64,000 nucleotides of DNA from Candidatus Daviesbacteria bacterium (lineage in GTDB: Bacteria > Patescibacteriota > Microgenomatia > Daviesbacterales > UBA10151): positions 2,020-66,019 of the forward strand of contig JACPEW010000011.1 of assembly GCA_016183305.1 (NCBI GenBank), in the 5' to 3' direction. The first letter of the stretch is position 1. Each line of letters begins with the position of its first letter. The notes beneath the pieces are model-generated. The model made no database searches. It saw nothing but the letters and a program-made list of their open reading frames with translations, and was not told the DNA's origin. Position numbers and translations under genes: made by a program. Positions 23,397-48,912 of this stretch are shown piece after piece.

Positions 23397-24512
23397 ATGG
23401 CAAAAAATAACGGTGTAACAACATTTACTTCTGAATCAGTCTGCGCCGGTCATCCGGATAAAATATGTGATGCAATATCTGATGCAATCGTTGATGCAGT
23501 TTTAACGCAAGATAGATTTGGCCATGTAGCCTGTGAGGTCTTGGCAGGATTTAATAGAGTAGTAATTTCCGGAGAAATTACGGCTAATGCTAGAGTAAAT
23601 TACGCGGATGTTGCTAGGCAACAAATAAAGAAATTGGGATATACAGATCCTAACTACAATTTTTCTGATAAATCTCCTGTCGAAGTCCATATTCATGAAC
23701 AATCCCCTGAAATTGGTGTAGGGGTTGATAAAAAAGGGGCAGGTGACCAGGGGATGATGTTTGGATATGCTTGCACAGAAACAACCTGCTTGATGCCGTT
23801 GCCTATTGCCATCGCTCATGCTCTAACCAAAAGAATGGATCAAGCCAGGGAAGAAAAAATAGTAAAATATTTAAGACCAGACGGAAAATCCCAAGTAACA
23901 ATTGAATATAGAGACGGAAAGCCTTATAAAGTAATTCAAGTTGTTATTGCTATTCCACACGAGGAATCTGTTAACTTAAATAAGGTTAAAGATGATATAT
24001 ACGAGTCAGTTGTTATACCTGTTTTAGATGTTTATGGATTTAAAATTAAGAAAGATCAGTTAATTGTCAATGGAACAGGGGTTTGGCATCATGGTGGTCC
24101 TGCTTCTGATTGTGGTTTAACAGGCAGAAAAATAGTGGTTGATGGATATGGTGGTTATGCCAGAGTTGGTGGAGGAGCATTTTCTGGAAAAGACCCAACA
24201 AAAGTAGATAGATCAGGAGCATATGCAGCAAGATTCCTGGCCAAAAATATTGTAGCTGCTAAATTAGCAGACAGGGCAGAAGTGAGACTGGCTTACTTTA
24301 TTGGAGCAAAAAAACCAACCATGCAGGATGTAGAAACCTTTGGGACCAACAAAAAATCTCATAAAGTAATACTTTCCTTCATGGAGAAGATCTTAGATAC
24401 CTCAGTGTCAGGAATATTAAAAGGTTTAGATTTACAAAGACCAATTTATTTACCAACAGCAGCTTATGGTCATTTTGGCAGAGAAGAATTCCCCTGGGAA
24501 AAAATAGTTTAG
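23397..24512 (+). CDS. metK: S-adenosylmethionine synthetase
   Basis: FTSESV..GHPDKICD, GAGDQGMMFGYA motifs. Confidence 0.95.
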   Translation: MAKNNGVTTFTSESVCAGHPDKICDAISDAIVDAVLTQDRFGHVACEVLAGFNRVVISGEITANARVNYADVARQQIKKLGYTDPNYNFSDKSPVEVHIHEQSPEIGVGVDKKGAGDQGMMFGYACTETTCLMPLPIAIAHALTKRMDQAREEKIVKYLRPDGKSQVTIEYRDGKPYKVIQVVIAIPHEESVNLNKVKDDIYESVVIPVLDVYGFKIKKDQLIVNGTGVWHHGGPASDCGLTGRKIVVDGYGGYARVGGGAFSGKDPTKVDRSGAYAARFLAKNIVAAKLADRAEVRLAYFIGAKKPTMQDVETFGTNKKSHKVILSFMEKILDTSVSGILKGLDLQRPIYLPTAAYGHFGREEFPWEKIV

Positions 24513-25297
24513 GAAAACTCCAAAATCATTGGTAAATGATCTGAGATAGGCATATCAGGTACTTGAAACTTCGTTACCTTGATATCAGAAGATACAAAAG
24601 TGTAATCAGCATACTTTTGAAAATTAGGTCCTCCATAAAAAGGGCTTAAATTACTTCTAGTTTTTCTGATATCAAATTCTCTAATTAAATTCCTCATATT
24701 TTTCCCGTAGATTTTAATGCTTTTAGTATCAGGTAATAAATTAAAATCCCCTACTAATAAAATTTTTGCCTCATTTTTTTGATCAATAATTTCTTTAACT
24801 TTCTGAGCTTCTTCTAAACGCTCAGGAGAATCTAGTTTATTGCCAGGCATAGGCCTGCCATGGAAATTAAAAATAACATATTGCTTATTGTTTATTTGAC
24901 AATTTATGAATTGTAAAGGAGTTGGTAAGTTAGAAAAATCTTCCTTTAACTTAGGAAAAGGCTGATCTTGAGAAACAATATAATTTGCTTGATAAGTAAT
25001 TTTTATTGAATTGTTAACCAAGATAGCTGATCCAGTAGTTGAATCAAAATTAATTGGATTTGCTTCATCGTCAAAGCTTTTGATTACAGGAAAATAAAAT
25101 ACTTGGAAATCAGGAAGAATTTGTTTGAACTCTGTTAATAAATTAGCCCTGATATTTCTATATTGTTTTACCTTTGATATAGTATCCTGCATTTCTTGAA
25201 AACAGAAAATATCAGTATTTAAAGATTGTTGTTTAATAAACTCAATAAGAGGTTTAAAGCATTTTCCACCCCAAGTATTAAGCGATATGAGTTTCAT
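24509..25297 (-). CDS. endonuclease/exonuclease/phosphatase (EEP, DNase I-like) family protein
   Basis: Starts MKLISLNTWGG; motifs FCFQEM, VGDFNLLPD, SDHLPMILEFS. The 641-aa ORF in the track is an artefactual read-through from the upstream recombinase/repeat. Confidence 0.75.
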   Translation of the reverse strand: MKLISLNTWGGKCFKPLIEFIKQQSLNTDIFCFQEMQDTISKVKQYRNIRANLLTEFKQILPDFQVFYFPVIKSFDDEANPINFDSTTGSAILVNNSIKITYQANYIVSQDQPFPKLKEDFSNLPTPLQFINCQINNKQYVIFNFHGRPMPGNKLDSPERLEEAQKVKEIIDQKNEAKILLVGDFNLLPDTKSIKIYGKNMRNLIREFDIRKTRSNLSPFYGGPNFQKYADYTFVSSDIKVTKFQVPDMPISDHLPMILEFS

Positions 25298-25332
25298 AAA
25301 TAGTATTCTAAGGATATGGGTGATAAAATACA

Positions 25333-25407
25333 ACGTGGTTACGGGGATTAGGTCACCGGTAGACCGCTCGAATGGGGTTCGAGAAGCAAAGAGTTCAATT
25401 CTCTTAT
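25333..25407 (+). tRNA. tRNA-Pro (anticodon GGG), CCA encoded
   Basis: Manual cloverleaf: acceptor CGGGGAT/ATCCCCG, D-stem GGTC/GACC, anticodon stem CTCGA/TCGAG with loop ATGGGGT (U33, GGG, G37), T-arm AAGAG-TTCAATT-CTCTT, discriminator A, CCA. Confidence 0.85.
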
Positions 25408-25513
25408 CCCCGACCAAGAGAGAAAAAGAGTCCGAAAAGGCGGAGGCGCTCCGTGCGTCGCCGCCCGCACGGAGCGCCGAGAAGCCCTTTTTATATTCTG
25501 CCGAGAGCTGCCG
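25402..25513 (+). repeat. att-like repeat copy 1 (tRNA 3' end CGACCA plus 105-bp segment with 13-bp GC hairpin)
   Basis: Near-identical inverted copy at 26959-27062 (1 mismatch); diverged direct copy at 28624-28729. Contains GGCGCTCCGTGCG-loop-CGCACGGAGCGCC. Confidence 0.8.
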
Positions 25514-26911
25514 ATTAGATAAAAAGAAGTTCGAGCCGACACGTTTTGCGAAGATTGCTAAATCTTCGCAATTATTTTTTGCGCGCGCGATTTTTTGCGC
25601 CTGTAAGGCGCAATTTACGAATTCTCTCATAGGTTCGAGCCAACTCGAACCAGTCTTTTCAACTTTGGCACTCTCTTCCTGTAATTTCAGTTTTGTTTCA
25701 AACAACTCGTTTTTCTTTTGTTTGTAGGTATCGGGGTCGACAACACTATCGAGAAAACTGTCTAAAAGTGTATTTTGTTTTCGGTCTACATCTTGAATTT
25801 CAGTTTTGAGATTTTGGATTGTTGTTTCTGATGATTGTTTTTCGGCTAACTCATCTCGCTCTAAAAATTTCAGCCAATGGTCAGCCCAGCTTTGAGGCAA
25901 TACCACATCAGAAACGACTTTTCTTATTTGATCTCCCATCTCAAAACCGGTGATTGGCGCTTGAGAACACGGACCAAGTTTCTTGGTGCAACGATAATAA
26001 ACGTAAGTACATTTACGATTTGTTGTTTTGTAAAATTTTGTATGCTGTTCGGCGGTGATCGCTGCCCCACATTCACTGCATCTAGCTAATCCCAAAAACG
26101 GAAAGCGGTATGATTTCTTGAAATGCTTAGTTCGCCTTTCCATTTCCTCTTGTACTTTCTGGAATAATTCTTTGGGAATAAAACACTTGTGATTTCCGTC
26201 ATGATACTCGTCGTTGTAAAACATAATACCGATATAAAACTTGTTTGAAAGTATCTGGCGGATTTCGTTGATATGCAGTGGTCTTCCGTTTTTGCGCTTC
26301 AGATCAAACTTGTAAACATATTTCGCAATATCCGTAAAAGTATGATTTCCTTCAGTAAACATTTCAAAAACTTTCTTTATTGCTTTTGACTTTTCTGGAT
26401 CGACGTCTATGCCTCTGGTTTTAGGATTGTTCACATACCCATAAGGGGCTTTTGCCGGTCAAACTCCGTTTCGTAGTTTTTGGCGCAAACCTCGTTTTAC
26501 GTTTTCGGAAAGATTGTCCACATAATATTTCGATTGGCCGAAGGCAATTGAAAGCATAAATTTACCTTGTGGTGTGTTTTCAAACCAAGAAGTTGGAAAT
26601 TTCAGGTCAAGTAGTTTGCCGGTATCGAGAAGATAAATAATTTTTCCGCCATCCATTGAGTTTCTGGCTAAACGATCGGGGTGCCATGCAACAATCCCGT
26701 TTGCGTGTCCCTTCTCGATTTTCTTCAGGACTTCGGCAAACTGCTCTCTTCCTGGCATTTTGGCGGTTTTTGCTTCCTCGACAAATTCGATAATCTCCAA
26801 ATGTTCTCGTTTGGCAAATTCTTTTAACTCGGCTATCTGGGCTTCGATAGATAAAATTTGCTTGTCTGCTTCGTCCCTCGATTTTCTGCAATACGCGATA
26901 TATTTTGTCAT
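25514..26911 (-). pseudogene. large serine recombinase interrupted by an in-frame TGA (26456-26458); 3' end runs into repeat copy 1 without a stop
   Basis: N-terminal catalytic domain (YCRKS..., DRLAR, VDNLSENVKRGL), in-frame TGA, then continuation PAKAPYGYVNN..., recombinase domain and Cys-rich zinc ribbon (CSECG...YYRCTKK), coiled-coil. TGA is used as a stop in rpsJ and rplD of this genome. Confidence 0.7.
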
Positions 26912-44924: not shown

Positions 44925-45938
44925 ATGAATAAGATATTAGTTATTTTAGGTCCGACTTCAACAGGTAAAACTGATTTAGCTCTTAAATTGGCTCAAAAAC
45001 TGGGAGGAGAGCTGGTATCAGTTGATTCAAGGCAGGTTTATAAGAATTTAGATATTGGGACTGGTAAATTACCAGTTCAATTGAAAATTGAGAATTGTAA
45101 ATTGAAAATTAAAAAGGGTGATGGATGGTGGAAAATTAATGGAGGAAAAATATGGATGTACGATGTAGTTGAAGCAAAAAAGCAGTACACAGTTTTTAAT
45201 TATGTTAAAGATGCTTCTAAGCTCATAGATGATATTTTACAAAGAGGAAAGTTGCCAATTTTAGCAGGAGGGACTGGATTTTATCTTAAAGCTTTGTTGG
45301 AGGGTTTGCCTAATTTGGCAGTTCCTCAAGATCTAAAACTAAGGGAAAAATTAGAAAAATTATCTTTAGAGCAGTTGCAAAAAAGACTTCAAGAATTATC
45401 TCTGAAAAAATGGGAAAGCATGAATCATTCCGATAGACAAAATTCAAGAAGGTTGGTTAGGGCTATAGAGTTAGTAATTTTGTCATTGCGAGGAGTGAAA
45501 CGACGAAGCAATCTTCCCATTCCGTTGAAGATCGCCACGCTAATCGCCCGCGATGACAATGTACTTAAGATTGGGCTGACTGCACCTAGGGAAATCCTAT
45601 ATCAAAGGATAGATGAAAGGGTGATTAGCAGAATAAATCAAGGGATGATTGAAGAGGCAGATAAATTACATAAAGAAGGTTTAAGTTTTGAGAGAATGAA
45701 ACAATTAGGTCTAGAGTATGGAGTTCTAGCAGATTACCTTATGGGTCAAATTGCTAGTAAAGACCAACTGATAAAAATTCTCCAGGATAAAATCCATGGT
45801 TTTGCCCGCAGGCAAATTACCTGGTTTAAGAAAGAAAAAGAGATGAAGTGGTTTGATATTGCCGGTTCACATTATCTTCACAAAGTAGAAGAATTAGTAA
45901 GCGAATGGTATGATAGTGGGTATGACACGGAAGATTGA
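44925..45938 (+). CDS. miaA: tRNA dimethylallyltransferase with two in-frame insertions
   Basis: P-loop GPTSTGKT, DSRQVYK, PILAGGTGFY, RRLVRAIEL motifs. Insertions at LKIENCKLKIKKGDGWW (AT-rich motif shared with the fusA upstream region) and at ILSLRGVKRRSNLPIPLKIATLIARDD (palindromic repeat). Confidence 0.85.
   Translation: MNKILVILGPTSTGKTDLALKLAQKLGGELVSVDSRQVYKNLDIGTGKLPVQLKIENCKLKIKKGDGWWKINGGKIWMYDVVEAKKQYTVFNYVKDASKLIDDILQRGKLPILAGGTGFYLKALLEGLPNLAVPQDLKLREKLEKLSLEQLQKRLQELSLKKWESMNHSDRQNSRRLVRAIELVILSLRGVKRRSNLPIPLKIATLIARDDNVLKIGLTAPREILYQRIDERVISRINQGMIEEADKLHKEGLSFERMKQLGLEYGVLADYLMGQIASKDQLIKILQDKIHGFARRQITWFKKEKEMKWFDIAGSHYLHKVEELVSEWYDSGYDTED
45476..45562. repeat. GC-rich palindromic MITE/REP-like element copy 1 (in-frame inside miaA)
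   Basis: Termini TGTCATTGCGAG ... GCGATGACAA (imperfect inverted repeat), internal hairpin ATCTTC..GAAGAT. Second copy at 62216-62296. Confidence 0.6.
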
Positions 45939-46890
45939 TATTTCTCATAGAACAGTTATTTTTATTGCAGTTTTTATACTGGGCATCTGGTTGATTTATT
46001 TAATATTAGACCTTTTAATAATTTTATTCGTGGCGTTAATCCTGATGTCTGCGCTTTTTCCTATAGTTAATTTTTTGCATAGGTTTAGAGTTCCTAAATC
46101 TCTGGGAATTGCTCTTACCTATACTATCGTAATAGCTATTGTCTCAACGCTCTTGGCCATTGTGGTACCTCCTCTAGTAGAAGAAACCAGAAGGCTTGTC
46201 TTAACGGTTCCTCCTCACTTGGATTCTTTGCTGGAAATTACAACAATTGATAAATCAGTTCTGCAATCACAGCTCTCTGATTTATCAAAAAACATTTTCT
46301 CAATTACTTTATCAGTATTCGATAACCTGTTAACAATAATTTTCTTATTGGTAGTAACGTTTTATCTTATGCTGGAAAGGGAGAATGTGGAGAGTAAATT
46401 TGCCTCTCTTTTTATTGGCAGAGAGGAACGGGTTAAAAAGTTAATAGTACAGATAGAAGAGAAATTAGGAAACTGGTTAAGAGGACAATTGTTACTTAGT
46501 TTAGTAATAGGAAGTTTAACCTACATAGGACTACTTATTTTAGGAGTTCCTTATGCTTTGCCTTTGGCAGTGGTGGCAGGTATTTTGGAAGTTGTGCCGG
46601 TGATTGGACCAATTATTTCAGCAATTCCTGCTGTTTTAATAACCTTAACTATTTCTCCTGTTTTAAGTTTAGGAGTGACTGCAATGTATTTTATTATCCA
46701 GCAACTGGAAAATAATCTGATTGTGCCTCAGGTAATGAAACGGGCAGTGGGCTTGAATCCTTTAGCAGTAATTTTAGCTATAGCTATAGGGTCTAGATTA
46801 TTAGGCATAGTAGGTGCTCTATTAGCTGTTCCCTTAACAGTAGTTCTTCAAATTATAGTAACAGAAATTCTTGAAGAGAATAAGTTTTAA
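45922..46890 (+). CDS. AI-2E family transporter (PerM/YhhT-like)
   Basis: Eight TM helices; conserved C-terminal region LAVVAGILEVVPVIGPIISAIPAVLITL. Confidence 0.8.
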   Translation: MTRKIDISHRTVIFIAVFILGIWLIYLILDLLIILFVALILMSALFPIVNFLHRFRVPKSLGIALTYTIVIAIVSTLLAIVVPPLVEETRRLVLTVPPHLDSLLEITTIDKSVLQSQLSDLSKNIFSITLSVFDNLLTIIFLLVVTFYLMLERENVESKFASLFIGREERVKKLIVQIEEKLGNWLRGQLLLSLVIGSLTYIGLLILGVPYALPLAVVAGILEVVPVIGPIISAIPAVLITLTISPVLSLGVTAMYFIIQQLENNLIVPQVMKRAVGLNPLAVILAIAIGSRLLGIVGALLAVPLTVVLQIIVTEILEENKF

Positions 46891-46901
46891 TTGTATAATA
46901 T
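46891..46901 (+). promoter_or_regulatory. extended -10 promoter (TTGTATAAT) for the downstream RNA
   Basis: TGnTATAAT motif about 6 nt upstream of the predicted RNA 5' end. Confidence 0.4.
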
Positions 46902-46904
46902 ACC

Positions 46905-47108
46905 TGCTTAGGAAGAAGGATGATTGACCTGTACTATTACGGTATGGGTAGGAAAGTCCAGACAGCGCAAAGCAGGATGTCCGACGTGGCAATCCTCTCC
47001 GCTGCAATCCTAGAACCAACAGAGTGACTTGCTCAATTGTTGAAATAAGGAGCATTAGATAAATAATCGTCTAAAAACAGAATCTGGCTTACTATCTTCC
47101 TAGGCACT
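46905..47108 (+). ncRNA. rnpB: candidate RNase P RNA, strongly miniaturised (~205 nt)
   Basis: Universally conserved J3/4-P4 AGGAAAGUCC (46950-46959) and ACAGAAUCUGGCUUA (47077-47091), with complementary P4 strands. P1 CUUAGGAAG/CUUCCUAGG pairs the ends. P2 GAUGAUU/AAUCGUC. Small P3 hairpin. Only ~105 nt between the P4 strands. Confidence 0.45.
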
Positions 47109-47137
47109 TTTTTACCCCCCCATAGTATACTCAATAT

Positions 47138-48670
47138 ATGCTTGCAAAAATCATCTCTGCCGCAAATATCGGCCTTGATGCAAAAATAATTACTTGTGAG
47201 GTAGATATTTCTGCCCAAGGTTTACCTAGCTTTACCATAGTTGGGTTGGGAGATAGAGCTATTGAAGAAAGTAAAGAAAGAGTGCGGACTGCATTTAGAA
47301 ATTCCGGCGCTAATTTCCCTTTACATAGGATTACTGTAAATCTTGCGCCTGCTGATATTCCCAAAGAAGGACCAAGTTTTGATTTACCGATTGCCTTAGG
47401 TTTACTTTTAGCCTCTGGGCAAATTACCAATAACCCGTCAATATTAAACCTCACAGATGCTTTGGTAGTGGGAGAACTTTCTTTAGATGGAACTTTAAGA
47501 AGGGTTAACGGGATATTGCCTTTGGCAATTTTGGCCCGGGAACAAGGAATAAAAAAGATTATCGTGCCAAAGGAAAATGGTCCTGAGGCAGCAGTAATAG
47601 AAGGCTCAGAAGTATTTGCTGTAAATTCATTCCAACAATTAATAAAGCTATTGTTGGGGCAAGAAGAGCTAAATCCAATTCAAAAGCCAGAATTTACTTT
47701 AGATGAAGAAACTGTAAACTCAGAGTATGATTTTTCTCAGATCAGAGGACAAGAACAAGCTAAAAGAGCTTTAGAAATATCAGCCGCAGGTTCACATAAC
47801 ATCCTACTAAAAGGTTCTCCCGGAGCAGGTAAAACAATGCTTGCCAGAAGCTTTTCTTCAATTCTGCCGCCACTGACTTTTGAAGAAGCAATTGAAGTAA
47901 CAAAAATATATTCAATCGCCGGGTTATTAGATACTGATAAATCACTGATTGTTAGCCGTCCATTCCGTTCTCCTCACCACAGTGCTTCTTATGTAGGATT
48001 GCTTGGTGGTGGAAATAATATTAGGCCTGGTGAAATCTCGCTGGCTCACAGAGGAGTTTTATTCTTGGATGAGGTAGCAGAATTTCCCCGCCAAAGTTTA
48101 GAAAGTTTAAGGCAACCCTTAGAAGACCGCAAAATTACAATTTCCCGTTCGTCAGGCTCAATAAGCTTGCCAGCGCAATTTATTTTATTGGCAGCTCAAA
48201 ACCCCTGTCCTTGTGGTTTTCTTGGTGATAAGAAAAGAAATTGCAGTTGTATGCCAGGACAAATTGCCAAATATAAACGAAGAATTTCAGGTCCTTTTTT
48301 AGATAGAATAGATATTTATTTGGAAGTCCCTGCTGTGGAGGTTGATAAGTTATCTTCAGACTTAAAAGTAGAAAGTTCTGCTGATATTAGAAAAAGAATT
48401 ATTAAGGCAAGAAAGATTCAATTGCAAAGGTTTAAGGGAAAGATTTTTACTAATTCGGAAATGAGTAGTAGTGATATTAAAGAATACTGTGTACTTATGC
48501 AAGATGGTTTAGAACTATTAAAGATGGCAGTCTCATCCCTTAACCTGTCAGCTAGAGGTTATCACCGGGTGCTAAAACTTTCCAGGACTATTGCTGATTT
48601 GGCAGCATCAGAAAATATTCAGGCAGAACATATTGCAGAAGCTTTACAGTATAGAACAAGGGAAGAATAG
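47138..48670 (+). CDS. comM: YifB/ComM family Mg-chelatase-like AAA+ ATPase
   Basis: N-terminal Lon-like domain, Walker A GSPGAGKT, ChlI-type core, C-terminal domain. Confidence 0.88.
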   Translation: MLAKIISAANIGLDAKIITCEVDISAQGLPSFTIVGLGDRAIEESKERVRTAFRNSGANFPLHRITVNLAPADIPKEGPSFDLPIALGLLLASGQITNNPSILNLTDALVVGELSLDGTLRRVNGILPLAILAREQGIKKIIVPKENGPEAAVIEGSEVFAVNSFQQLIKLLLGQEELNPIQKPEFTLDEETVNSEYDFSQIRGQEQAKRALEISAAGSHNILLKGSPGAGKTMLARSFSSILPPLTFEEAIEVTKIYSIAGLLDTDKSLIVSRPFRSPHHSASYVGLLGGGNNIRPGEISLAHRGVLFLDEVAEFPRQSLESLRQPLEDRKITISRSSGSISLPAQFILLAAQNPCPCGFLGDKKRNCSCMPGQIAKYKRRISGPFLDRIDIYLEVPAVEVDKLSSDLKVESSADIRKRIIKARKIQLQRFKGKIFTNSEMSSSDIKEYCVLMQDGLELLKMAVSSLNLSARGYHRVLKLSRTIADLAASENIQAEHIAEALQYRTREE

Positions 48671-48774
48671 ACAGTTTGCCACGGAAACCCCGCTTCATCC
48701 TGCACCATCTGGTGCAGGACTACGGGGGATCTTCCGGAATGATGAATCCACAGTTAGACCGGGAACATCAATTT

Positions 48775-48912
48775 TTAACCGCCGATTTTGAACATAGAGG
48801 TACCACAGACTGGGCAAGTTCCTTTTGAAGCCTTTTTACCATTTTTCATAGTTACCTCTTGTACATTTTCTGCGTCTCTTTTTGTTCGACATTTAACACA
48901 GTACATTTGCAT
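48775..48912 (-). CDS. small zinc-ribbon protein (45 aa; CxxC...CxxC)
   Basis: MQMYCVKCRTKRDAENVQEVTMKNGKKASKGTCPVCGTSMFKIGG. Strong SD AAGGAGGTGA 9 nt upstream. Not in the ORF track (<60 aa). Confidence 0.6.
   Translation of the reverse strand: MQMYCVKCRTKRDAENVQEVTMKNGKKASKGTCPVCGTSMFKIGG

Follow-up and report, generated by a model that had tools for sequence, protein, structure and literature searches.

In Candidatus Daviesbacteria bacterium (Microgenomatia, CPR), 247 nt separate an AI-2E family transporter gene from comM/yifB. This gap contains an RNA gene, and the question raised by the locus is one of size. As assembled, the RNA measures 198-200 nt, versus the 330-400 nt usual for bacterial RNase P RNAs. 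The original prediction, made on the 64,000-nt stretch of DNA analyzed here (the window), took it for a naturally miniaturised RNase P RNA of ~205 nt, with a degenerate remnant as the fallback. Were the small size real, no smaller bacterial RNase P RNA would be known, and its host would be the first bacterium without a specificity domain (S-domain).

The locus is a genuine rnpB, encoding RNase P RNA of bacterial type A. In permissive Rfam mode, the type-A model RF00010 matches window positions 46908-47107 on the plus strand over its full length (model positions 1-367) with 81.9 bits; the E-value is 1.9e-25 when computed on the region and 3e-23 on the window as a whole. The predicted identity was thereby confirmed, although the score lies below the curated (gathering) cut-off of 100 bits. 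Because of that shortfall, a default Rfam gathering scan of the window returned no RNase P RNA and a tRNA alone, and a permissive scan was needed to recover the locus. Both universal blocks of RF00010, AGGAAAGUCC and ACAGAAnnnGGCUUA, occur in the correct order and can form P4 with its bulged U, and the fold of the RNA is stabler than that of shuffled sequence (z=-3.84). A chance resemblance to RNase P RNA was also considered and is ruled out by the E-value (2e-25), a conserved promoter and synteny. The gene and its surroundings are as follows:

45922..46890, plus strand: AI-2E family transporter, 322 aa (MBI2314897.1), the upstream neighbor
46871..46899, plus strand: promoter, with -35 TTGAAG at 46871-46876, a 17-nt spacer and -10 TATAAT at 46894-46899 (10/12 consensus matches)
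46908..47107, plus strand: rnpB as assembled, 198-200 nt, with 67 nt of the S-domain absent (RF00010, 81.9 bits)
47138..48670, plus strand: comM/yifB, Mg-chelatase-like AAA ATPase, 510 aa, the downstream neighbor

The order miaA / AI-2E / rnpB / comM is kept in Daviesbacteria. The ComM of the window is 100% identical to a Candidatus Daviesbacteria protein, the next best matches being at most 84% identical, and all of the named matches beyond the identical one belong to Daviesbacteria, Microgenomates or Patescibacteria. The window as a whole has 35.8% GC and includes a ribosomal-protein operon. The promoter is of the sigma-70 type; its -35 hexamer falls within the last codons of the transporter gene, and P1 begins ~7-9 nt 3' of the -10 TATAAT. 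The same arrangement (TTGAnn, 17 nt, then TATAAT or TAAAAT) occurs upstream of 39/39 related RNAs, across two gene-cassette orientations. A promoter had been predicted here and is real, but the extended -10 ascribed to it is not, as the TG directly abuts the hexamer.

Within the assembled RNA, the elements of a type-A catalytic domain can be laid out in order:

46909..46916, plus strand: P1 5' strand UAGGAAGA, pairing with UCUUCCUA at 47095-47102 (extendable, 46905-46916 with 47095-47106)
46919..46925, plus strand: P2 5' strand GAUGAUU, pairing with AAUCGUC at 47065-47071
46927..46949, plus strand: P3 hairpin, a 9-bp stem (46927-46935/46941-46949) with a 5-nt loop
46950..46961, plus strand: conserved region AGGAAAGUCCAG, including the P4 5' strand (A46954-G46961, U46957 bulged)
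46963..46979, plus strand: P5 5' strand CAGC (46963-46966), J5/7, and P7 5' strand GGAUG (46975-46979)
46980..46996, plus strand: S-domain remnant around the junction 46983-46984, comprising UCCG (P8 5' half), ACGU and GGCAAUCCU
46983-46984, plus strand: assembled junction, reading ...GGATGTCCG then ACGTGGCAAT...
46997..47004, plus strand: 3' partners of P7 (C-UCC, 46997-47000) and P5 (GCUG, 47001-47004)
47008..47051, plus strand: P15-P16-P17 arm, with P15 UCCU (47008-47011) pairing with AGGA (47048-47051)
47017..47042, plus strand: P16 CAAC (47017-47020) pairing with GUUG (47039-47042), and inside it P17 GAG (47022-47024) pairing with CUC (47032-47034)
47055..47091, plus strand: J18/2 UUAGAUAAAU, P2 3' strand and conserved ACAGAAUCUGGCUUA, including the P4 3' strand CUGGCUU (47084-47090)

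The two conserved blocks on which the prediction turned, AGGAAAGTCC at 46950-46959 and ACAGAATCTGGCTTA at 47077-47091, are thus present, correctly ordered and complementary as P4 (AAG[U]CCAG with CUGGCUU, seven pairs plus the usual bulged U). The distance between the P4 strands, put at ~105 nt, measures 117 nt, and the supposedly tiny P3 is the 9-bp hairpin given above. P5, P15-P18 and the entire S-domain had been expected to be vestigial; P5 and P15-P17 are in fact present, while P18 and the S-domain core are missing as supposed. P18 is absent not only from this copy but from the whole clade. In place of ~140 model positions (P8-P14, the specificity domain), the window copy has ~20 nt, in which ACGU and GGCAAUCCU represent the end of J12/7 plus the P11/P10 3' strands; folded alone, this remnant is predicted to form a small hairpin. 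The L15 loop reads GAAAUA and has no GGU (CCA-binding) motif.

How unusual this form is becomes apparent from a set of 39 distinct RNAs, including that of the window, pooled from all loci. Thirty-eight of them are 255-337 nt long, the window (198 nt) being the sole outlier, and AGAGCAACAG is present in 38/39 and missing from the window only. For example, in four Daviesbacteria genomes whose ComM is 78-84% identical and whose RNA lies in the AI-2E/comM gap (L011, 317 nt and 121 bits by Rfam; L014, 294 nt and 111 bits; L008, 339 nt and 103 bits; L015, 293 nt and 101 bits), the RNA has P7-P12 with conserved ACAGUGACGA and GGGUGAAA, and P13/P14 and P18 are absent. The P4 strands are 185-187 nt apart in the two closest other species having upstream sequence (L017 and L018), versus 117 nt in the window, and 36 further lineages keep the S-domain too. 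Across the clade, L15 reads GAA(A/G)U(C/A/G), and GGU occurs in 0/38 sequences in which the L15 motif was located. The native Daviesbacteria RNA is thus one of 255-337 nt, without P13, P14, P18 or the GGU motif. The two gene-cassette orientations found among these genomes are fixed lineage differences, each with its own promoter context.

The type-A structure was then written onto the 39-sequence alignment and its pairs were counted. Standard pairs fill 95.3% of cells, versus 33-49% in controls with the partners shifted by 1-3 columns, and changes on both sides of a pair occur at 34 pairs, values that 0/500 shuffles reach. P1 (helix 1) is 93% paired with both-side changes at two pairs, P2 has such changes at 4/7 pairs and P3 at 9/9, P7 (helix 6) is 99% paired, and P16 and P17 covary at 4/4 and 3/3 pairs, respectively. 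The P1 and P2 pairings of the original prediction were therefore borne out by covariation in relatives, as it had proposed to check. P4 is invariant in 39/39 sequences, and covariation thus cannot test it; P5, P10/P11 and P15 are likewise invariant. Moreover, helices missing from the window covary in the clade, namely P8 (4/5 pairs), P9 (3/3) and P12 (3/5). As the helices of the S-domain either covary or are invariant, the missing part matters in the Daviesbacteria clade. Judged from these alignments, the family is a genuine structured ribozyme with a specificity domain maintained by selection.

The most telling comparison is with a strain of the same species. Two contigs of MAG GCA_964569495.1 (L021 and L022) encode AI-2E proteins that share a 90%-identity cluster with MBI2314897.1. 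Over the promoter, the RNA, the intergenic flanks and the start of comM, the window and L021 are identical at 271/271 aligned positions, and the sole difference in the RNA and its intergenic flanks is a 67-nt block, GUGUAAGCCGGAAGCCGUAAGGUCUAGUUAGAGCAACAGUGACGAACCGGGGUUAUGCUCGGGUGAA (GTGTAAGCCGGAAGCCGTAAGGTCTAGTTAGAGCAACAGTGACGAACCGGGGTTATGCTCGGGTGAA), which lies between G46983 and A46984 in the sister strain and is absent from the window; beyond 46983, the full-length path enters GTGTAAGCC / GTGTAAGCCGG. L022 has the same block with the same sequence as L021. The block is the specificity-domain core, made up of the P8 3' half, P9, the P10/P11 5' strands, J11/12, P12 and most of the joining region that follows. 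With it, the RNA (the L021 allele) is 267 nt long and scores 110.8 bits, above the Rfam cut-off. The S-domain with J11/12 (ACAGnGAcGA) and J12/13 (GGGUGAAA), the sites of contact with the tRNA T-arm, is accordingly absent in the window and present in the sister strain and in 38/38 relatives.

The flanks of L021 differ from those of the window by 33 substitutions in 2,341 aligned positions (~98.6% identity over 2.3 kb), which makes L021 a different strain of the same species; the two are therefore distinct strains, yet show zero divergence within the RNA. The last SNPs that separate the window strain from L021 and L022 are at 46811, 46815, 46833 and 46842, within the AI-2E gene, and its alleles at the last two are 46833-C and 46842-A. 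Three changes in the RNA, in P2 (C-G to U-A), P5 (an extra G-C) and P7 (G-C to A-U), were considered as adaptations to the deletion and rejected. The P2 closing pair, for instance, is U-A in both the window and L021 and C-G in many relatives; since the full-length L021 has all three changes in common with the window, they predate the deletion and are not adaptations to it.

These comparisons bear directly on the idea that a reduced-genome bacterium has evolved a minimal RNase P RNA of ~205 nt that is typical of its lineage. Such a form would be in keeping with the reduced RNase P RNAs of CPR bacteria, which score below Rfam thresholds, and with a clade that has dispensed with P13/P14, P18 and the GGU motif. 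It is nonetheless essentially excluded, as the sister strain and 38/38 relatives keep the S-domain, the smallest relative has 255 nt, and the apparently compensatory changes in P2, P5 and P7 occur in the full-length allele as well. Being conserved in no relative and accompanied by no change (0 substitutions in 271 nt), the window copy fails as a natural minimal form, and the miniature size that had been proposed is private to one assembly. The fallback of a degenerate remnant came nearer the truth, but a gap in the assembly is the most likely explanation instead.

The absence of the 67 nt is most likely a local assembly or scaffold-join artefact in a normal CPR-type rnpB. One reason for saying so is the position of the left breakpoint: the last SNP versus both sister contigs lies at 46842, and 46842 + 141 = 46983, the final base before the gap. 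The largest k used by MEGAHIT by default is 141, the edges of its graph are (k+1)-mers, and a strain-specific unitig would end exactly k bases past the last strain-specific SNP, where it merges with shared sequence. The contig of the window strain would thus have ended at its merge with sequence common to co-occurring strains, k=141 nt past the last SNP, after which the scaffolder, estimating the gap at zero or less, would have attached the next strain-resolved contig, dropping the intervening bases and leaving no Ns; scaffolder handling of negative gaps is as assumed in this proposed join. A breakpoint at 141 nt, equal to MEGAHIT's default largest k, together with a probable source project that used MEGAHIT and IDBA-UD, makes the scaffold-join artefact most likely. 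The project in question is a groundwater study (He et al. 2021), in which each filter was assembled with MEGAHIT v1.2.9 at default settings and the IDBA-UD scaffolder was then applied (PMC7906910). The MAG containing the window probably comes from that project, and its source samples probably belong to BioProject PRJNA640378. The link to the project is drawn indirectly, through adjacent Logan run accessions: the comM of the window strain is found in Logan run SRR12113430, adjacent to runs containing sequence of a MAG known to be from the project. The Logan run identifiers themselves do not appear in the He et al. 2021 supplements consulted.

The right breakpoint agrees less neatly. Downstream, the one known divergence, that of the L022-type strain, is at 47113, and 47113 - 141 = 46972 would be the start of the next strain-resolved contig. 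This lies 12 nt before the right breakpoint, so that an extra assumption is needed, either trimming by the scaffolder or an unseen variant. The 12-nt offset fits a scaffolder that overlaps or trims contig ends at a gap estimate of zero or less. The breakpoints themselves have no repeat of at least 6 nt and no microhomology, and their positions are unambiguous. A CGT/ACGT microhomology at the junction, suggested by distant relatives, was refuted by the same-species allele, which shows none. Because the breakpoint ends share no repeat and no k-mer, the gap cannot have come from a pure shortcut in the de Bruijn graph, nor from simple slippage.

Breaks at this locus are not confined to the window. 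A contig end cuts 10/59 RNA loci, and three independent assemblies (L016, L019 and L020) start just upstream of comM. L016, the only independent assembly of the window strain, is 100% identical to the window over 1,784 nt, and it begins at 47079, inside the P4 3' strand and hence downstream of the junction. An invertible RNA cassette was entertained as the cause of the three breaks ~60 nt upstream of comM and rejected, since k-mers shared by co-occurring strains fit them better. With conserved segments common to co-occurring strains, the gene is especially prone to broken contigs and mis-joins in MAGs assembled from short reads.

Internal deletions that make no structural sense also occur in the rnpB of other MAGs, and these were counted towards an artefact. 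In L005, from a Tectomicrobia genome (74% GC) of the same groundwater project, rnpB has no P10-P14 or P15-P17 and the P5/P7 pairing is broken, and in L002, from Bryobacterales, everything from P9 to half of P16/P17 is gone, the P5 and P7 3' strands included. As these gaps remove P15-P17 and/or the P5/P7 3' strands, the resulting RNAs could not function. Both resemble the window copy in being a type-A rnpB from a short-read MAG in which an internal gap shortens the P4-to-P4 distance; they differ in that their gaps reach beyond the S-domain, whereas that of the window lies entirely inside it.

This placement counts against an artefact, as a viable real deletion would have to fall in just this way; the gap is wholly within the S-domain, spares both P7 strands and leaves a closable hairpin, as ~10% of random 67-nt deletions in this RNA would. 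A real and very recent strain-level deletion has therefore to be weighed, one that would leave a catalytic-domain-only RNA still processing pre-tRNAs, less efficiently and helped by RnpA. Such an RNA would be the counterpart in nature of engineered C-domain ribozymes and of the Pyrobaculum type T RNA. All catalytic-domain elements are spared along with both P7 strands, the remnant can close into a hairpin, and the breakpoints offer no repeat or shared k-mer that might have caused a graph shortcut. There is also a biochemical precedent in Eco CP RPR from the Kirsebom laboratory, in which the S-domain has been cut out at P7 and the catalytic domain kept (PMC5839562). Without its S-domain, the E. 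coli RNA stays active and is ~120-fold slower (12 versus 0.095 without protein and 2161 versus 18 with protein; PMC5839562, Table 1), which is the behavior to be expected of the window RNA if its deletion is real. Unlike the window copy, this is a laboratory construct derived from E. coli, and it keeps the L15 GGU (a P18-deleted version was also made). Moreover, tRNA arrays on viral contigs are accompanied by RNase P-like RNAs whose S-domain is very reduced, and the window strain itself is present in Logan assemblies of four samples, but only downstream of the junction.

Against a real deletion stands the fact that it is a single observation with zero accompanying substitutions, and hence with no sign of persistence, in an RNA whose S-domain has been strongly conserved, with covariation, across all 38 relatives. 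The exact 141-nt distance between SNP and breakpoint would, in addition, have to be a coincidence of roughly 1-5%. Wide searches for a second case point in the same direction. A scan of 241 million JGI metagenome records with the clade-conserved anchors AGGAAAGTCCAGACAGC ... GCTGCAATCCTAGAAC gave 0 loci at the short spacing (20-50 nt) and 48 matches at the full-length spacing (90-120 nt). A short P4-to-P4 spacing was found at seven loci in ~185,000 species, none of them in CPR bacteria and none of them in the window's own genome. The form without an S-domain is thus a singleton from one assembly, and a real deletion that leaves a working RNA is judged unlikely. Searches with six junction-spanning ORFs gave no informative exact match, and the ORFs of neither allele were ever called as genes.

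A deletion could also be real and inactivating. In that case the locus would have only just become a pseudogene, with RNase P activity supplied by a second rnpB or a protein-only HARP elsewhere in the genome. Loss of T-arm recognition would be expected to be strongly deleterious, given an S-domain conserved clade-wide, and a second enzyme could sit outside the 64 kb of genome covered. Within the window, a second rnpB was rejected, as the permissive Rfam scan gave no RNase P-like signal across the 64 kb other than that at 46908-47107, and a scan of 20 window ORFs turned up neither rnpA nor a HARP-like domain. In relatives there is one rnpB, in synteny, and Lui et al. 2021 (PMC8172020) describe circularised Microgenomatia genomes as having one diverged RNase P RNA apiece. 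Furthermore, neither the promoter nor the RNA shows decay. Taken with these observations, a pseudogene backed by a second enzyme is very improbable.

Under the preferred reading, that of an assembly artefact, the cell would make a type-A RNase P RNA of 265-267 nt from its own promoter, as in the sister strain. The catalytic domain, formed by P1-P5 and P15-P17, would hold the active site around P4, the P7-P12 specificity domain would bind the T-arm of tRNA, and the RNA would work with the RnpA protein in cutting 5' leaders off pre-tRNAs; the catalysis and the protein partner are ascribed by analogy with what the RNase P family is known to do. From its sequence, the native RNA most likely combines a complete catalytic domain with CPR-style trimming (P13/P14, P18 and the L15 GGU missing, P12 short). 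The L15 contact with the 3' CCA of tRNA is probably absent, because GGU is replaced clade-wide, though the one tRNA gene of the window, for tRNA-Pro(GGG), encodes CCA.

Such trimming has precedents. Many CPR RNase P RNAs score below Rfam thresholds (Lui, Nielsen and Arkin 2021, PLoS Comput Biol, PMC8172020), and two Microgenomatia genomes were described in the same work as having RNAs without P12, P13, P14, P18 and the UGG motif; the GGU motif of L15 is likewise missing in about two thirds of CPR RNase P RNAs (PMC8172020). A reduced, low-scoring rnpB in Microgenomatia has therefore already been described, and the native RNA is of this known reduced CPR type. It shares with those RNAs a Microgenomatia host, a type-A core, scores near or below threshold, and the absence of P13/P14, P18 and GGU/UGG, and differs in keeping a short, covarying P12. 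The window copy is further without half of P8, P9, the P10/P11 5' strands, J11/12 and P12, a condition that PMC8172020 describes for no genome. Measured against RF00010, it retains P1-P5, a P4 pseudoknot that includes the two universal blocks (AGGAAAGUCC and ACAGAA...GGCUUA), P15-P17 and J18/2 in a full-length alignment, and departs from the model in its score (81.9 bits, versus 100) and in the missing S-domain core, P18 and P13/P14.

Outside the bacteria, the closest likeness is to type T, the RNase P RNA form of Pyrobaculum and related Thermoproteaceae (Lai et al. 2010, PNAS, PMC3012483). The window copy is also ~200 nt long and also consists of a catalytic domain with almost no specificity domain. 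Type T, however, is archaeal, conserved in its clade and shown to be active, whereas the form in the window is of bacterial type A, comes from a single assembly and is undiverged from a full-length allele. Separately, the RNase P-like RNAs found beside tRNA arrays on viral contigs are of bacterial type, and their much reduced S-domain has apparently evolved.

The evidence points to an ordinary CPR-type rnpB with a 67-nt hole that is private to one assembly. It is doubtful that the deletion is real and fixed, so that a living strain matures its tRNA 5' ends with a catalytic-domain-only type-A RNA of ~200 nt. If that were true, the strain would be a natural experiment demonstrating that a CPR bacterium can do without the specificity domain in vivo, with parallels in archaeal type T and in the short RNase P-like RNAs near viral tRNA arrays. 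CPR rnpB scores under the Rfam cut-off and escapes default scans, and, since the gene is prone to misassembly in MAGs, odd or small structural RNAs should be compared with those of strains of the same species before they are interpreted. Finally, the set of 39 RNAs, with its covariation-supported structure, documents the native RNase P RNA of Daviesbacteria.

In Daviesbacteria, the rnpB gene is carried in a cassette of ~300 bp that includes its promoter and that sits between the same two genes in either orientation, depending on the lineage. The RNA is encoded on the strand opposite to comM in four of the clade's loci (L011, L014, L015, and L017) and on the same strand as comM in the window, in L008 and L018, and in the sister-strain contig L021. 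In one orientation of the cassette, the -35 element lies within the final codons of the AI-2E gene, and in the other, the promoter and the start of comM are arranged divergently.

A different arrangement was observed in L022, the second strain contig of GCA_964569495.1, where comM (~1.5 kb) is absent and the RNA gene is directly followed (L022:1621-1748) by sequence found downstream of comM in the window (window 47112, 48694-48814). Identity between L022 and the window is 92% over the upstream miaA/AI-2E stretch and 100% in the RNA. This arrangement could reflect a real deletion, inter-strain recombination, or a chimeric contig arising from a strain mixture.

The RNA itself also varies by insertion within the clade. 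In GCA_016184225.1, an insertion of ~60 nt is located between P2 and the P4 3' strand (L008:2833-2907), with a hairpin inside it and, flanking it, a second copy of the conserved sequence of the P4 3' strand, AACAGAAUCUGGCUU. A simple hairpin has been inserted at the same site in other lineages (L014, L025, and L027).

Elsewhere in the window, its sole tRNA gene sits antisense within a 641-aa ORF, a stop-free read-through in which a serine-recombinase module is fused to an Exo_endo_phos domain. The features of this region (window 24509-26911, minus strand for the ORFs) are as follows:

Window 25342-25416, plus strand, tRNA-Pro(GGG)
Residues 13-157 of the 641-aa ORF, serine-recombinase module (Recombinase plus zinc ribbon)
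Residues 384-633 of the 641-aa ORF, Exo_endo_phos domain
Window 26459-26911, minus strand, separate Resolvase N-terminal ORF of 150 aa, just upstream of the 641-aa ORF

The region resembles a large serine recombinase in split form next to a tRNA, as is typical of an integrated mobile element. Beyond it, several ORFs at 27.3-28.8 kb had no Pfam matches.

Among more distant genomes, two RNase P RNAs were unusually short: an RNA of 187 nt that matches archaeal RNase P RNA over its full length at 111 bits (L004:496-682, uncultured archaeon MAG CAZJHM010000011.1), and a bacterial type-A RNA of 252 nt and 190 bits in Candidatus Gallimonas faecium (L006:3437-3688). Either may be type T-like, a reduced form, or the product of an assembly gap. 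Two bacteria with large genomes carry an rnpB with an internal gap:

L005:3384-3593, Tectomicrobia MAG JACPCT010000227.1
L002:7179-7395, Bryobacterales MAG PLRJ01000160.1

These gaps remove essential parts of the catalytic domain (P15-P17 and the 3' strands of P5/P7) and are almost certainly misassemblies. Since both genes nonetheless score slightly over the Rfam cut-off (104 and 102 bits), annotation would pass them as ordinary rnpB genes.

Viral contigs, some of them phages of 124-191 kb, also carry short bacterial-type RNase P-like RNAs, and a further one lies on a 1.5-kb contig consisting almost entirely of tRNA genes. The RNAs are ~200-240 nt in length, with 124-157 nt from one P4 strand to the other:

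L071:1378-1575, RNase P-like RNA on IMGVR_UViG_3300033144_007217 (39 kb)
L073:667-915, RNase P-like RNA
L075:10569-10811, RNase P-like RNA
L076:2239-2497, RNase P-like RNA
L072 and L074, RNase P-like RNA, same sequence
L001:584-792, RNase P-like RNA

Each is adjoined or enclosed by a tRNA array on the same strand; the L001 RNA lies between tRNA-Arg and tRNA-Leu with spacers of 0-1 nt, and that of L076 is flanked on both sides by tRNA-Arg genes. In full-length alignments to RF00010, L071 scored 63.8 bits (E=7e-18) and L001 65.5 bits. Both have ~30-38 nt in place of the specificity domain and lack P18, and the GGU motif is retained in L071. No paper on RNase P RNA encoded by phages turned up in a literature search. 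Unlike the RNA of the window, these short RNAs appear to be phage-borne RNase P RNAs that have evolved to a catalytic domain only.
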